Source: a virus | Length of the DNA: 64,000 nt | IMG/VR virus record: IMGVR_UViG_2852409570_000001 | Location: 1,529 to 65,528 of that record | Reading direction: 5' to 3' (one strand) | Part shown: positions 44,625-55,000 of the stretch, piece by piece | Numbering within the stretch: position 1 is the first letter of the stretch | How the letters are laid out: each line of letters opens with the position of its first letter | Translations under genes and position numbers: made by a program | The notes under the pieces: model-generated | What the model saw: the letters and a program-made list of their open reading frames with translations, nothing else | Told to the model about the DNA's origin: nothing | Database searches by the model: none

Positions 44625-44837
44625 TTACCAATCTTGATGCTCACCATGTCCATGTTCATGCTCACGATCGCGGTCATGATTACGTCTACGACGACACTCA
44701 TCACAATCGCAGTCACGTCTACAATGACAGTCGTTAAAATCGTTTCTTCTTCGTCTACGGCCGCAACCGCAAAATACTAAATCATCCCAAAATCTATTAC
44801 AATCTCGAGAATGTCCAAAATTATTATCCCATCCCAT
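44625..44837 (-). CDS. Small Cys/Arg/Asp/His-rich protein (spore-coat-like composition)
   Basis: CGCGRRRRR..DCHCRRDCDCDEC..HEHGH; GAGGAGG RBS. Confidence 0.65.
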   Translation of the reverse strand: MGWDNNFGHSRDCNRFWDDLVFCGCGRRRRRNDFNDCHCRRDCDCDECRRRRNHDRDREHEHGHGEHQDW

Positions 44838-44954
44838 AGATATGATTCCCTCCTCTAAAAATAGAATTCATCATATTCTATGATTAAAAGGTAGAAATAG
44901 TTTGTTTACTAGTCTATGTTTCAAAATAATAATATTTCAATTTGCAAGTCTATC

Positions 44955-47337: not shown

Positions 47338-47724
47338 TTAAATCATCCCTAAAGATGTAGCGATCAATCGAATTGCATTTTTCTTCTTATAATAGAAGTG
47401 ATCTTTCTTCATCGATAATTCAGTGTAAATAAAGCTGTCTTTCGGCTTATCTGCATTTAAGTATTTCTTCTTGATGATTTCTGCCTCGTCATAGTCTAAA
47501 ACGTACCCTAAAGCCTTATCGATCTGCTTGAACTTGATATTGCTAATATATCTCGTGTCTCTAATCTCCGGGAACAAACTGATTCCTTCGTGTTTTAACT
47601 CCACTTCATTCTCAAAACGCGTTTTCAATGCGCGGTATTCCTTTAGTATTTTCACTACTTCTTTCTGAACCTGTTTTTCTGTCTCTCTATCAATAGTCGG
47701 TAATAATGTTAATTGTCTCTCCAT
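47338..47724 (-). CDS. arpU: ArpU-family transcriptional activator
   Basis: LKEYRALK, IIKKKYL, FYYKKKNAIRLIATSLGMI. Confidence 0.9.
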   Translation of the reverse strand: MERQLTLLPTIDRETEKQVQKEVVKILKEYRALKTRFENEVELKHEGISLFPEIRDTRYISNIKFKQIDKALGYVLDYDEAEIIKKKYLNADKPKDSFIYTELSMKKDHFYYKKKNAIRLIATSLGMI

Positions 47725-47862
47725 GAAGGAATCCCCCTATTTCTGAATTTGTCTTTTTACATTCACATCAGGTACGTGAAATTTTACTATCTCTTTGTTG
47801 AATAAGGGAAACATGCATAGCGAATAGTCCCCACCATCCACCTTGCAAGGTTCCGTTATCCA

Positions 47863-48492
47863 TTAAACTCTTAATAATTTACATTTCTTGTTGGCCATCT
47901 TCTCTTTTGCTGCTTCAATATTATTCGCTACCTTTTGATAGTCCTGATCAAATTGAATCATTCCATCAAACATGACTGGTGCTACTACTTCGTCAACATA
48001 TTGCAAGTAATCAATCGGCGCTCGTTCTGTCTGTTCTACTAAGTATCCATAAATATCAAAGTCTGCTCTTGGTATAGACTTCTTGCCTTTTGGTTGATGA
48101 GACATCCTTACATAAGATTGAATGACTGATAGTGGCACTGCGAATACTGACTTATCCTTACTGAATTCTATAAGGAAGAAACATACTGCCCCCATCTTCT
48201 CCGCTTTCTCCAAGTAATCCAATTGATGCTGTGCAATGTTCTTTAAATCAAAACGTGTATCTTTCTCTGTAGACTTCGCTTCAAATGCGATAGCTCGTCC
48301 CTTATACACGCCGTCATAGTCTACTGTGCTCTTTGCTTCATAGAATCCATTTAGTACACGACCACTTTTGCTCTTTAACACCTTCACAGGAGTCGGACGC
48401 TTGTTTATAAGCGCCACTCCCCCTCTTTGATACATTTCATTCGCTAGATTGATAAGCATTTCAAATGCCATCCCACGGTTTCCTAGCCCCAT
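47863..48492 (-). CDS. recU: RecU Holliday junction resolvase
   Basis: NRGMAFE, KRPTPV, STVDYDGVYKGRAIAFEAKST. Confidence 0.93.
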   Translation of the reverse strand: MGLGNRGMAFEMLINLANEMYQRGGVALINKRPTPVKVLKSKSGRVLNGFYEAKSTVDYDGVYKGRAIAFEAKSTEKDTRFDLKNIAQHQLDYLEKAEKMGAVCFFLIEFSKDKSVFAVPLSVIQSYVRMSHQPKGKKSIPRADFDIYGYLVEQTERAPIDYLQYVDEVVAPVMFDGMIQFDQDYQKVANNIEAAKEKMANKKCKLLRV

Positions 48493-48514
48493 TGTTATTC
48501 CCCACTTTCTATTA

Positions 48515-49790
48515 AAAGGATTATTTTGTTGAATTTTTTACTACCAATCACCGAAAATATCTTATAATCTTTATATACAAACTTATTTTTAGGAGTAGAT
48601 AGAATGCCAGTTACACTTGAACTTATTCTTTTCATTCTTATAGCAATTAGTGCTGTTGGCTATTTGATAAAAGAATCTCAAAAAACTAAGAAAAGAACCC
48701 TTGGAATTTCACTAGAACTTTTAATTCTTTTCTGGTCAATATGGAGAATATCGACTATCATAATCCAAATTTCAGAATATAATCTCTCGTGAATAAAATT
48801 CAATATTCCGTCAATACTGTATATGACATCAGATTTTCTCCTTGTTCCCCCTTGGAGAACCGAGCAGTTAGCTTTTGCTAGCTGCTTTTAATTCGTAAGA
48901 AGCACTCAATTAACTGGAATCACATATAATATTCTGATTTCCTTTCTCTATAAAATAGTCGTTATAAAATGAGACTCGTCACGAGAGCACTTTACTAAGT
49001 GCTCTTTTTATATTCCAACCTAATACAAAATGAAGTTTTTATATAAAGTTTTCTCAATATCTACAACCTGGAAATAAATTACCTTTTATGGTAATATATT
49101 GGTAATCCCATAAAGTTCTATTGTTCCATTAAAAAGGACCCCTACCCCTTTTCCGGGTCCTTTTTCAACGTTTTCTACTAAAATAGCGTTTTTTTATTCA
49201 AATTGATGCCCTGCTCATTTGGGCACATTTACCAGTATTTTTACCAAAAAATTCATGATATTGTTAATTAGTCGAGTACGTCATTACTTGACGATTACCC
49301 TTAGGGGCTCCCCAGACAAATGGGGCTCCTTTTATTCAAATAACTATTTTGTTTAAATTTCATTAACCTTATTGATTCCTTTACATACAGTATTATCACA
49401 AGAAATTCAATAAGTGCTCCGGTCTAGTTATCTTGAATTTCTTGCAAATCTTGTGGGAAGAATCCGTTTATAACAAACGGGTTCTTTTATTTATTCATCA
49501 TAAAATAACTATTTTGTTCACTTTTTTGATACATTTACGAAACATTTATGTGTTATCTTCAGTAAGTTCTTTTCTTTTCATAAAATTGTGTGAGTTATAC
49601 CGACACAAGAAGCCCTAGATCCCTAAATCTAGGGCTCCTTCGTTTAAATAACTATTTTGTTCACTTTGTTGTATAGACAACTATATATTTAGATGTTAAA
49701 ATATTATTGTGATTCCCACTTGGTTTCACATACGACTTTTTTTCTTCGATTATGGGGTTCTTACGTAATAGTAAGGACCATTTTTTTATT
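48515..49790 (+). repeat. Tandem array of ~150-bp units: AAATAACTATTTTGTT boundary, promoter-like sequence, short hairpin, terminator
   Basis: Boundary motif at 49338, 49503, 49646 (exact) and 48515, 49181 (degenerate); seven + strand terminators at ~48862, 48983, 49131, 49304, 49458, 49609, 49756. Confidence 0.8.
48604..48792 (+). CDS. Small two-TM peptide (moron)
   Basis: AGGAG RBS; two hydrophobic segments. Confidence 0.7.
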   Translation: MPVTLELILFILIAISAVGYLIKESQKTKKRTLGISLELLILFWSIWRISTIIIQISEYNLS

Positions 49791-49936
49791 TAGTTCCCCT
49801 AGCCAGTAAATCTGAAGCCCATATTTCTTTCTGATTCCAATAATCCCAACGTTTCTACTGACGCTATGACGCCTACTGGTGCCTCGTTCAATCAAATGAG
49901 TTTCTGCCCTTTAAATACGTCATAACGCTATGTCTC

Positions 49937-50200
49937 CTAATCCAAATTCATTATCTCTTCTAAGCTTCTATCAGAAATATACGTGGTGATAATCTGTATC
50001 TTTCCGTATTTTCTTTTAACCATTTCTATAGCTTCGCTCTCGGACTTCGCCTCAAACCAACGAAGCTTCCACTTCTCGTCTTTGTCGTAAAACTCTACTG
50101 AGTACGTCATAACGCTATTACGCTTCAAAAATTTATCCACGGTACTTGTTGCGGTATAATCAAAACTTCCGACTACATCCTCCAATGTTAGTTGTTTCAT
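49937..50200 (-). CDS. Hypothetical early phage protein
   Basis: Coupled to upstream ORF; MKQLTLEDVVGSFDY. Confidence 0.75.
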   Translation of the reverse strand: MKQLTLEDVVGSFDYTATSTVDKFLKRNSVMTYSVEFYDKDEKWKLRWFEAKSESEAIEMVKRKYGKIQIITTYISDRSLEEIMNLD

Positions 50201-50487
50201 GCCCCTAACCCCATTGGACGCGATTTGATTTTGTTCTTATCTGCCTGATCCATAATTAATGCGGCGATTTCTAGTTGATGCCTTCCTAACTCTTTTGCTA
50301 TTTCAAGAATATCTTTATCCTCATCCCACATTTCTCTTAATTGAATCACTTCGCTTTCATCAAACACTAAATCCAACTCTTCTAAAGCGATATATAAGTT
50401 ACGACGCGACTTCTTCATGTACTTTCCCTGCTGCAACGCCATTGTGTAATTCTCCTTTTCCAAATCCGTTCCAAGTCGTGGCATCCC
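50197..50487 (-). CDS. HTH-like early phage protein
   Basis: Probable start MPRLGTD; LYIALEELDL..IAKELGRHQLEIAALIMDQA. Confidence 0.7.
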   Translation of the reverse strand, partial: GMPRLGTDLEKENYTMALQQGKYMKKSRRNLYIALEELDLVFDESEVIQLREMWDEDKDILEIAKELGRHQLEIAALIMDQADKNKIKSRPMGLGA

Positions 50488-50662
50488 ATTTCCCCTCCAG
50501 TTGTAATTGATGAATTTCTCGTAACTCCGCCATAACGGCATGACGTCTTCTATCCACTTCTTCAGGACTGCGATTCCCTGCTTCGCAAATACACGGTGCA
50601 AATTGATAGCAGCCATTCCCCATATCGTTCCTAATTACTCCCGTTCCTTCGCATACACACAT
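50399..50662 (-). CDS. Small Cys-containing early phage protein
   Basis: MCVCEGTG...PCIC directly after the helicase-loader gene. Confidence 0.55.
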   Translation of the reverse strand: MCVCEGTGVIRNDMGNGCYQFAPCICEAGNRSPEEVDRRRHAVMAELREIHQLQLEGKWDATTWNGFGKGELHNGVAAGKVHEEVAS

Positions 50663-50677
50663 CGTTTATTCCCCCTT

Positions 50678-51487
50678 TTAAAATGGCAATGCCTTTCTTC
50701 TGTAATCCTTTGTTTCTTTGAAAGTAATCGTTCTGAAATTATTGAGAATCCGCGATACAATTCGTTCATCGTATGCCTCGTCTAAACGCTTCCCTGTGAG
50801 GTTTGTCGTGAAGATAGTAGATTTACCTTGCCTACCATCGAAAACATCGAATAGCACCCTATTAATGAAGTTTGTTGCTTTCGTATTGGCATCTAATGCG
50901 CCTAACTCTGCTCCTAAATCATCGACTATTAATACTTGTGCTCTTACTAAACTTTGAATTATTGCGTCCTCAGTTAAGGAGGAATCTTTATTGAACGTAC
51001 TTTTAATCTTCCGTAGCAATTCGCCAACTGTGACGAAGACAACAGATATCCCCGCACCTGCAAGTTCTTCCGCTATAGCGTAAGCAAGATGTGTTTTCCC
51101 TGCCCCGCAATTCCCGGCCATAATCGTGTTAAACACTTTCCCTTTGAGATAATCAGTTGCAATGACCTTTGCAAGTTCAAGGTTCTTCGCTCCTTCCTCG
51201 CTAGTAGGTTGGTAGTTTTCAAAGTTAGCTTTCTTAATGTTGCTATCGGCAATCATGCTTTGCTGATGGAACATGAACTTCTTCTCATTCGCTTTACCTG
51301 CATCGTACTTTTCTTGTTCTTGTTGCTGAAGCTTCTTACTTTCGTTTTCAAGGAAGCAGCGAGGGCAAACAACTTGTCCACCGAACTTCATCTTATTCAT
51401 GCCGTGCATCACACACACATCAGAATCCATAGTCATATTCACCTTTTTGGCTATATCGATTGGTATTGCTGCCGCCGCTCTTTGCAT
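50678..51487 (-). CDS. DnaC/IstB-like helicase loader ATPase
   Basis: GNCGAGKTHLA, LIVDDLGAE, TIFTTNL, ERIVSRI. Confidence 0.92.
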   Translation of the reverse strand: MQRAAAAIPIDIAKKVNMTMDSDVCVMHGMNKMKFGGQVVCPRCFLENESKKLQQQEQEKYDAGKANEKKFMFHQQSMIADSNIKKANFENYQPTSEEGAKNLELAKVIATDYLKGKVFNTIMAGNCGAGKTHLAYAIAEELAGAGISVVFVTVGELLRKIKSTFNKDSSLTEDAIIQSLVRAQVLIVDDLGAELGALDANTKATNFINRVLFDVFDGRQGKSTIFTTNLTGKRLDEAYDERIVSRILNNFRTITFKETKDYRRKALPF

Positions 51488-53638: not shown

Positions 53639-54413
53639 TCCTCCTTATTTACTGAGAGAAAACTTATGGTATAATAGAGGTAGCTAATTTTAGGGAATGT
53701 TTTCTCTACAGCGCTCGTTGACATCGAGCGTTTTTTCGTTTTTAATAGCTAACTTTCTGAAAGTCTGTTAAAATTTAGTTACCGATATGTGTAACAACCG
53801 GCCTGTGCTTCTGTACGGGCTTTTTTGATGCTTTCACGCATCGTAATACCCAGGAACCTGTCTATTAGGTGGGGTATTCTATTAGATTCCTGAATATTAC
53901 GACAAGCAAGAGCTTGTCTTATTAACTCTGTAAAGACGCTATTACAAACATAAGCCCTTATGGATTCTTTAGATTATCAACTTTTTTCATAATTTTTATC
54001 ATAGATTTTTACATTCATATTTCTGTAACTTCTATATATAACATTTAAAGGAATTATGTGTTAAACTTATAACATTCCAAGAAGTCCTTTACTTTTAGAA
54101 TCGACAATTCTTCAATACCCTTAGTCTTGCCCTGCATCCCCTTGCAGGGCTTTTATCATTTAGCTAGAGTGATATACCTCTTGTATGTTTCTTCAACCTT
54201 ATCTGCGCTGTTATGTACACCCTTTGCTCTTAAATCCTTTATAATCCACAAGATTTTCTTTCGTTCATATTCATCACGCTGCTGTTTATTTATCATCTTG
54301 CGACCATCCTGTCTTTTTATCCCAGACATCAATTCTGTATATTAGGTATGCTGATAGACATATAGCTGCTGATACAATCGCCAATGATAATGTACTTTCC
54401 TCCATCATTTAAA

Positions 54414-54466
54414 CCGCCTCCCTATCCATTTCTGGAATGATTCCACGTTTCGTTAGAAGTTCGTTA
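54414..54466 (-). pseudogene. Orphan C-terminal tail of an antirepressor-type gene
   Basis: ELLTKRGIIPEMDREAV* directly after the HNH stop codon. Confidence 0.55.
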
Positions 54467-55000
54467 CACATGCTTCCAAGTCTCATTTCTTACAACCTTC
54501 CCTATAGTTGAATGTGATATTCCGAATGTTCTAGCCATTGCTCTAGCTCCATATTTAGAGTGGCCTGGTTTGTAGTGTTTTCTTATCCATTCAATTTGTT
54601 CTTCAGTAAAAACAGCTGTATGAATCTGTTCACCTTTTGCGTTTAAATCATTTTTAATTGCATGTTTTTTATTTTCCTTATCTGTCACAAATTCCAAATT
54701 GCTTAATCTGTTATTAGTCTTATCTCCATCAATATGATTAACTTGCATCTTCTCTTCTTGGCACTTATTAAAAGATTCAATAACTAATCTGTGTATATAA
54801 AATCTCCTTTGTATTCCTTTTTCGTCAGTTAATCCTATTCTTAAATAACCTTTTTTGGTAACAACAGGTGTTAAGATTCTGCCTTTTACGCTATTCCCTC
54901 TTTTTATAACTGTTTTAACTCTACCTAGATTGCTAATCACATATATCCCTTCATAACCTATTAAATCTACCCATATCTCATTTTGTTCTTTTGATTCCAC
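54464..55000 (-). CDS. NUMOD4-HNH homing endonuclease
   Basis: W..LIGYEGIYVISNLGRVK (NUMOD4); IHRLV, VNHIDGDKTNN..SNLE..N..H. Confidence 0.92.
   Translation of the reverse strand: MESKEQNEIWVDLIGYEGIYVISNLGRVKTVIKRGNSVKGRILTPVVTKKGYLRIGLTDEKGIQRRFYIHRLVIESFNKCQEEKMQVNHIDGDKTNNRLSNLEFVTDKENKKHAIKNDLNAKGEQIHTAVFTEEQIEWIRKHYKPGHSKYGARAMARTFGISHSTIGKVVRNETWKHV

Follow-up and report, generated by a model that had tools for sequence, protein, structure and literature searches.

Small RNAs (sRNAs) encoded by phages are, to our knowledge, described only as scattered single cases, almost all of them from Gram-negative hosts. In lambda, the small OOP RNA has a promoter and a terminator to itself and runs counter to the early rightward operon, inside which it lies close to the replication genes, and the LhrC1-4 genes of Listeria monocytogenes are head-to-tail sRNA genes with their own promoters and terminators, whose RNAs have C-rich unpaired motifs. 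T4-type phages carry mobile regulatory cassettes known as promoter-early stem-loop (PeSL) elements (Arbiol et al. 2010, PMC2839356), and the anti-sRNAs AsxR and AgvB of enterohemorrhagic Escherichia coli (EHEC) are prophage RNAs of 51-60 nucleotides (nt) at lambdoid moron sites (Tree et al. 2014, PMC4104026). Bacillus prophage regions are likewise rich in sRNAs: SP-beta, skin, P6 and P7 have 16 candidates between them (Irnov et al. 2010, PMC2965217). In this study, we analyzed a 64-kb window (the whole stretch of DNA under analysis) out of a 71.9-kb IMG/VR virus record, IMGVR_UViG_2852409570_000001, in which the 1.3-kb interval 48515-49790 lies in a 1.4-kb gap between - strand early genes and holds a tandem array of small units on the + strand.

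The reading that we favor on sequence evidence, with middling confidence, is that the array consists of non-coding morons, that is, of small-RNA genes, part of which may be expressed during sporulation. On this view every small unit would be transcribed by itself, from the + strand, in opposition to the - strand early operon of a Bacillus cereus-group phage-plasmid. Unit 1 would encode a membrane protein of 62 amino acids (aa), and U1b, U2, U4, U5 and U7 clearly, and U3 and U6 less so, would be genes for small RNAs of 60-100 nt, each equipped with a promoter, a stem-loop (5' or internal) and an intrinsic terminator of its own. Their promoters would be heterogeneous, of the sigma-A type with an extended -10 in U7 and U4, and with a mother-cell-type box, AC-N16/17-CATANNNTA, in about one third of the families of such units, including U2 and U5; because about a third of the families carry that box, part of the pool may be transcribed in sporulating lysogens. 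On the same reading, phages swap units from a large pool by homologous recombination at an AT-rich junction motif and at the terminator tails. The sequence shows the anatomy, the strandedness of the structures, the missing coding signal, the modular exchange and the enrichment of promoter boxes by strand and position. We infer that the boxes fire, which sigma factor would read them, and a role for the RNAs as base-pairing or protein-binding regulators of host or phage. The features of the array, in window coordinates, are the following.

48515-48540, + strand: degenerate junction motif opening unit 1, with three mismatches to the 16-mer described below; 88-95% conserved in many related loci
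48604-48792, + strand: cargo of unit 1, a gene for a 62-aa membrane protein with two transmembrane (TM) segments; good ribosome-binding site (RBS) at 48590-48596; phrog_8028, E 3.5e-33
48789-48889, + strand: module U1b, with an invariant 5' block TGAATA-17-AATACT, a variable middle and terminator T1
48838-48857, + strand: C-rich hairpin in the variable middle of U1b
48862-48889, + strand: terminator T1
48890-49009, + strand: U2, with hairpin 48916-48942 enclosing an AC-N17-CATATAATA box (48923-48931), and T2
48983-49009, + strand: terminator T2
49010-49165, + strand: U3, with hairpins 49070-49083 and 49084-49115, and T3
49131-49165, + strand: terminator T3, bidirectional (A-run on its upstream side, U-run on its downstream side); qualifies on the - strand as well
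49166-49337, + strand: U4, with a linker variant (49180-49199), candidate extended -10 TGATATTGT (49256-49264), hairpin 49271-49292, and T4
49303-49333, + strand: terminator T4
49338-49502, + strand: U5, with linker 49338-49353, AC-N16-CATACAGTA (49384-49392), a 12-bp stem-loop (49399-49444), and T5
49456-49492, + strand: terminator T5
49503-49645, + strand: U6, with linker 49503-49518, a conserved promoter-like block whose -10 is degenerate here (49546-49557), and T6
49608-49645, + strand: terminator T6, nearly symmetric, with a weak, interrupted U-tract
49646-49790, + strand: U7, with linker 49646-49661, TAGACA-17-TGTTAAAAT (49674-49702), 5' hairpin 49709-49729, and T7
49756-49787, + strand: terminator T7

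The seven + strand intrinsic terminators that a first-pass annotation, made from the sequence alone, had placed about 120-170 bp apart and against the early operon are all present; the early genes on either side are on the - strand. The spacings between the ends of T1 to T7 are 120, 156, 168, 159, 153 and 142 bp. On the + strand, T1-T5 and T7 each have the G+C-rich stem, short loop and immediate 3' U-tract of an intrinsic terminator, and, with the exception of T3, the stems have U-tracts on the + strand alone. A consensus scan of positions 47500-51000 (3.5 kb) identified seven terminator-like sites compared with 1.8 +/- 1.3 in shuffled sequences; five of the seven were inside the array, all seven were on the + strand and none was found on the - strand. 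T1 and T3 fall outside the tail or loop rules of that scan, yet they have perfect or near-perfect stems with U-runs. We had also considered whether a C-rich loop (UCCC, as in staphylococcal sRNAs) is the rule among terminators, and dropped the idea, which is true for T3, T6 and a few relatives and fails in most of the 27 terminators that precede linkers.

Comparison with homologous units in related phages favored the + strand for these structures. Helices that RNAalifold predicts on both strands contained 135 G:U pairs on the + strand versus 37 on the - strand (53:2 in T1, 16:0 in T4, 6:0 in T7 and 14:0 in the 5' hairpin of U4), an asymmetry in line with the earlier claim that stems dependent on G:U pairs mark the strand; T6 is essentially symmetric. 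The G:U pair of the U4 5' hairpin is kept in 11 of its 12 homologs. In T4 and T5, pairs have changed on both sides in relatives (compensatory changes), and one-sided changes are compatible with G:U pairing on the + strand. Folding z-scores of the predicted RNAs were better on the + than on the - strand in six of seven cases (-5.1 versus -2.9 for U1b and -3.6 versus -1.0 for U7), the exception being U6, whose region folds better on the - strand. The RNAalifold energies of whole units totaled -150 on the + strand and -117 on the - strand, with U2, U3 and U6 equal or better on the latter. Our call of the + strand is made because of the G:U asymmetry in shared helices, the U-tracts and the promoter boxes; the whole-unit energies are not decisive.

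Within the units, both of the internal hairpins noted earlier, the 12-bp stem at 49399-49444 and the GTGA...TCAC stem at 49709-49729, were found, and in U4, U5 and U7 the first base of the stem-loop lies 7 nt (in U5, 7-8 nt) after the -10 hexamer. The RNAs predicted for these three units would be ~65, ~95 and ~80 nt long, respectively, and would each comprise a 5' hairpin, an unpaired stretch and the terminator. As a sequence match, the U7 promoter is near-consensus for sigma-A (10/12 plus TG), and homology to U7 in the related locus L057 starts at the -35 box. The -10 box of U4 reads TGTTAAAAT in its most divergent homolog, and that of U6 is CATATGTTA in 5 of 13 homologs. U5 has 17 homologs and a folding z-score of -5.4, and the hairpin of U2 has two compensatory pairs among homologs. 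Of the promoter and terminator claimed earlier for every unit, the terminators are present in all seven, and sequence-level matches to promoters were found in U2, U4, U5 and U7, with U3 and U6 unconvincing.

Module U1b has 36 distinct homologs, which occur with or without an upstream open reading frame (ORF). Its promoter-like 5' block and its terminator are invariant, and its variable segment begins where transcription would start. The CUCCUU and UCCCCC tracts reported at ~48838-48852 are present and lie within the hairpin 48838-48857. The 62-aa protein encoded upstream has 56 homologs, all from the B. cereus group, and TATAAT at 48562-48567 is the putative -10 of its gene. The suggestion that the unit interiors are unique and non-coding held only in part: they are single-copy (BLAST found no second copy of any unit interior within the 64-kb window) and are ORF-free beyond unit 1, and unit 1 (48515-48890) holds the 62-aa gene. 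Some loci encode a small hydrophobic peptide (62 aa; 34 aa in relatives) ahead of U1b. A type I toxin-antitoxin pair formed by unit 1 and U1b was considered and rejected, as an ORF is missing upstream of most U1b copies, nor was a convergent antisense promoter seen. Single-TM peptides with strong Shine-Dalgarno (SD) sequences are encoded in + strand cassettes beside ORF-less units, 5' of U1b in loci L063, L018 and L033 and after U4 in L005/L082; such peptides (34-aa MKNPWKK..., MKKIF...) have a type I toxin- or holin-like look.

BLAST comparison with 50,697 phage records identified pieces of the interval in 56 records, all of Bacillus phages (including phBC6A52, McSteamy, Tavor_SA, IEBH, 250, PfEFR-4/5, Wbeta, Gamma and Fah), plus two labeled Staphylococcus phage SpaA1, a near-twin of Bacillus phage BceA1. 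The records of that name (HE614281 / NC_018277) contain U1b at 84% identity in the same position as in BceA1, and their host label looks doubtful. No record among the 50,697 matched the whole interval; the matches are unit-sized pieces of 70-95% identity. The units recur singly in more than 60 IMG/VR loci, and loci with the 16-mer described below have them in other orders and combinations: U6 precedes U5 in phBC6A52, U7 precedes U6 in L057, U5 is joined straight to U7 over one linker in L038, and at least five different neighbors follow U5 across the loci. In a raw-read RNA run, a homologous U6 breaks off exactly at 49504, in the first linker bases. Gain and loss of single units at the boundary motif, proposed earlier as something to be sought in relatives, is seen in L038 and phBC6A52.

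The size of the pool was estimated from 64 related loci, which were oriented and in which + strand terminators were called and inter-terminator units of 85-260 nt were counted. This catalog comprised 231 units in 91 families, 22 of which have at least three members, with runs of up to eight consecutive units. At least 75 families in the 64 loci are ORF-less. The families also include genuine small-protein cassettes, for a 46-aa CxxC protein, a 34-aa TM peptide and a GerPA/GerPF protein (in McSteamy). The first of these, family F12, is a 46-aa CxxC...CxxC (zinc-ribbon-like) cassette located between homologs of U4 and U5 (L039 at ~2661-2801, L119 and L112), which shows that coding and non-coding cassettes share slots. 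Across the related loci, flanking ORFs are ~2:1 on the strand opposite to the units.

The junctions between units were examined through the 16-mer (the linker), which is exact at 49338, 49503 and 49646 and has a 3-mismatch copy at 48515. The earlier statement that this motif separates the units is correct for the three exact copies, and the motif is exact at only three of the six unit boundaries. Among 55 distinct contexts of the 16-mer in related phages, a + strand terminator precedes it in at least 27, and ~19 have in front of it the RBS and start codon, in reverse complement, of an ordinary - strand gene. Because ordinary - strand genes adjoin it too, the 16-mer is a general junction of the early region of cereus-group phages and is not unit-specific. 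This makes the analogy to spacers between repeats, which had been drawn in the first-pass annotation, a misleading one. A CRISPR array (of short palindromic repeats that are clustered and regularly interspaced), integron cassettes and a ToxI-type repeat RNA were likewise rejected, since the repeat occurs at only 3-4 of seven boundaries, is AT-rich and non-palindromic and is common to ordinary gene junctions, and the neighbors are RecU, ArpU-like and replication genes.

For the promoters, counts were made on one representative per family (75 families). The CATA-type box is the canonical -10 of mother-cell sigma factors, and AC is the -35 of sigma-K (PMC3789822); the consensus that we used was a -10 of CATA---TA with AC (sigma-K) or ATA (sigma-E) ~16-17 nt upstream. 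Pairs of sigma-A-like -35 and -10 boxes numbered 40 on the + strand and 19 on the - strand, with a peak 60-100 nt from the unit end. The box CATANNNTA occurred 31 times on the + strand and 4 times on the - strand, compared with 7.2 +/- 2.4 in shuffles, where base composition predicts equality of the strands, and its + strand sites cluster 73-103 nt upstream of unit ends. The full box, AC-N16/17-CATANNNTA, was found 14 times on the + strand and not at all on the - strand, compared with 0.7 expected; over all loci its density was 1.68 per kb on the + strand of units and 0 on their - strand, versus 0.07/0.04 per kb outside them. On the + strand only, CA stands before TANNNT 2.6 times oftener than base composition predicts. 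The box is kept in at least half of the members by 26 of the 75 families, and the T-rich part of the linker lies ~30-36 nt upstream of it, at the position of an UP-element. In the window itself, U2 (48923) and U5 (49384) match the mother-cell -10 at the sequence level, with AC 16-17 nt upstream.

A GerPA-family gene of phage McSteamy lies in a + strand cassette of the same array type with a near-match, AC-N16-CATATACTG, upstream. The gerP operon of B. subtilis is sigma-K dependent. The McSteamy gene (locus L002, 1020-1425, + strand) encodes a GerPA/GerPF-family spore germination protein (Pfam E 8e-20); the cassette is preceded by a linker-like motif together with the box and is followed by the 5' block of U1b without the U1b terminator. 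On the - strand of the window, at 44837-44905, a full AC-N17-CATAGAATA box lies ~45 nt upstream of the SD and start of a 70-aa gene (44625-44837) downstream of arpU, and judging by this match the same class of box may also serve a phage gene, possibly a late one.

Our most far-reaching proposal, which we put forward tentatively, is that B. cereus-group temperate phages and phage-plasmids have a recombining pan-library of sRNA genes. It would comprise at least 75 families, stand in arrays of no more than eight, be swapped cassette-wise at the junction motif, be driven in large share by sporulation-specific sigma factors and serve to reprogram or monitor the sporulating mother cell or to fight rival phages.

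Several results weigh against the sRNA-gene reading. Some families have promoter blocks in common, so that the motif counts depend in part on one another. The CATANNNTA box overlaps the sigma-A TANNNT hexamer, and because it contains a hexamer of that kind we can only infer the sigma factor assigned to it. Catalog-wide, stems starting at the predicted start site showed no more than a weak peak at +6. U3 is without a convincing promoter; in the U6 of the window, the -10 has lost its A, leaving no convincing promoter, and T6 is symmetric with a poor U-tract. A - strand frame of ~30-44 codons in U5 is open in 10 of 17 homologs, with its stop fused to the linker. Within the window, the only sequence compared for this purpose, the units had no significant antisense match to other sequence, and nothing supports the earlier suggestion that they target mRNAs of the host or of competing phages. 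RNA reads were neutral as to expression: in contigs from RNA libraries of two studies, related units were continuous with RecU and the downstream gene, all at about the same depth, and no discrete RNAs were seen; two raw-read runs with the same species label yielded 33 and 10 reads, mostly of <95% identity and too few for strand or ends. In addition, no Rfam family scored above its gathering threshold, the best being ncr1015 on U3 with 26.7 bits versus 60. We rejected ncr1015 as the identity of U3, as the match is driven by the terminator and the ncr1015 locus of B. subtilis is not prophage-borne, and also a match of tsr26 to U1b, which at E 4.3 is sub-threshold. The units were not found to resemble any described Bacillus sRNA, by sequence or by Rfam, and a search of the interval for transfer and transfer-messenger RNAs found none.

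The main rival explanation, which we consider possible though improbable, is that the units are PeSL-like boundary elements, each a terminator, an AT-rich linker and a promoter, that insulate and shuffle cargo as empty regulatory and recombination cassettes, the short RNAs being functionless by-products. This would account for the same architecture framing protein cassettes (those of the 62-aa gene, the 46-aa CxxC protein, the 34-aa TM peptide and GerPA), for the linker joining ordinary - strand genes too, and for the covarying hairpin of U2, which encloses its own putative -10 box and suits a PeSL-like stem-loop over a promoter better than a simple sRNA gene. It would not lead one to expect that the bodies of the units are conserved as specific sequences in many phages, at an identity equal to or above that of neighboring genes, as illustrated by the nearly invariant body of U4 (11 homologs) and the invariant 3' arm of the U5 stem (17 homologs), nor that there are 75 or more distinct body families in a narrow size class, nor that the ORF-less units are without any leftover SD. 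The breakpoints in the linkers are those of PeSL-type shuffling; co-oriented ORFan cargo was not found, with six of the seven cargoes ORF-less and antisense.

Two other explanations fit the data less well than either sRNA genes or PeSL-like cassettes. The units might be decayed small genes on either strand, or genes for tiny peptides, which we regard as unlikely. Coding cassettes do exist in the same arrays, and the - strand frame of U5 (roughly ...QEIQGNWTR.TCGIPCDNTVCKGINKVNE*) is open in most homologs, with its stop fused to the linker as in ordinary early genes. Against this, the alignments of every unit (6-36 distinct homologs each) had no excess of synonymous-only variable codons in any of the six frames, the U5 frame has no usable SD or proper start and is frameshifted in the window by a 1-nt deletion, other frames of the AT-rich U5 are open too, and the other units are without conserved frames. 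Almost no SD-preceded ORFs were found on the + strand in the top families, U1b-U7 are without protein-coding capacity, and + strand terminators with +-specific G:U pairs would be unexpected inside relics of - strand genes. Still less credible is that the hairpins are cis elements of the - strand early mRNA (processing sites, 5' stabilizers or attenuators between the replication genes and recU-arpU), for although the linker-then-hairpin order on the - strand places hairpins at RBS positions, several hairpin arms contain AAGGAG on that strand, T3 is bidirectional and T6 is better folded on it, the G:U pairs of T1, T4, T5, T7 and the U4 hairpin become A.C mismatches on the - strand, and the U-tracts and the enrichment of promoter boxes are confined to the + strand.

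The neighbors of the array are the following.

47338-47724, - strand: gene for an ArpU-type activator (phrog_248)
47863-48492, - strand: RecU gene (Pfam RecU, E 6e-46)
49937-50200, - strand: gene for an 87-aa protein that flanks the array, with DnaC/DnaD-like genes and a Sak annealing protein on that side

A 25-nt inverted repeat of 84% complementarity links 48566-48590, just 5' of the RBS of the 62-aa gene, to 49027-49051, in the 5' conserved block of U3; it probably reflects the similarity of two AT-rich promoter regions, rather than RNA-RNA pairing. Further into the early region, the - strand at 54464-55000 holds a free-standing homing-endonuclease-like gene with NUMOD4, HNH_3 and helix-turn-helix (HTH) domains. 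Between this gene and the Sak-side genes lies a second + strand mini-array of sRNA-like units (53648-54150), two units of which are also present in loci L029 and L119 and whose last terminator is similar to that of a divergent U4 homolog in L012.

53648-53675, + strand: TTTACT-16-TGGTATAAT, start of a unit, followed by a terminator at 53710-53732
53766-53774, + strand: TGTTAAAAT of the next unit, followed by a small hairpin and a terminator at 53800-53821
53901-53918 and 54129-54150, + strand: further terminators

No description of these arrays was found in the literature. Should the units prove to be transcribed, the sRNA genes of cereus-group phages would exceed in number and modularity every phage set known to date, and they would come with a visible mechanism of exchange (the junction motif and the terminators) and a testable link to sporulation, the stage when temperate phages of spore-formers must choose how to persist. 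The host group includes B. anthracis, B. cereus and B. thuringiensis, and homologous units are carried by the well-studied phages Wbeta, Gamma and Fah and by phBC6A52 of strain ATCC 14579, in which homologs of U1-U6 lie at NC_004821 14384-15626. If instead the RNAs are functionless, the arrays are still a Gram-positive counterpart of the T4 PeSL cassettes and a clear case of mosaic phage genome building.

The likeness to PeSLs is considerable, as both consist of a repeated intergenic AT-rich stretch, a promoter (putative here) and a terminator stem-loop in a plastic early region, in both recombination between copies inserts, deletes and reorders the flanked units, both have G-T pairs in their stems, and in both the stem-loop may overlap the -10 box, as with the putative one of U2. 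However, PeSLs share one strong sigma-70 early promoter and flank co-oriented ORFan protein genes, whereas the features shared here are the 16-mer and the terminator tails, the promoters and stems are heterogeneous, the cargo is mostly non-coding and the units run against the operon. AsxR and AgvB resemble the units in forming, across prophages and at conserved moron positions, families of related, non-identical RNAs whose 3' terminator part is conserved while the 5' end varies, comparable to the invariant block and terminator and the variable middle of U1b. They differ in being single or convergent pairs downstream of PR', Gram-negative, Hfq-bound and of proven expression and targets, whereas the arrays described here have up to eight unrelated tandem units in the replication/early region of Firmicute phages, and their RNAs are predicted. 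Lambda OOP is likewise a small transcription unit that opposes the early operon with its own promoter and terminator, although OOP is one RNA only and has the cII mRNA, which it overlaps, as its target, whereas the units here are many and overlap no gene. Finally, the LhrC genes provide a parallel for tandem genes that each have a promoter and a terminator, and for C-rich unpaired motifs, but they are near-identical chromosomal siblings, whereas the units of this array are mutually unrelated and shuffle between phages.

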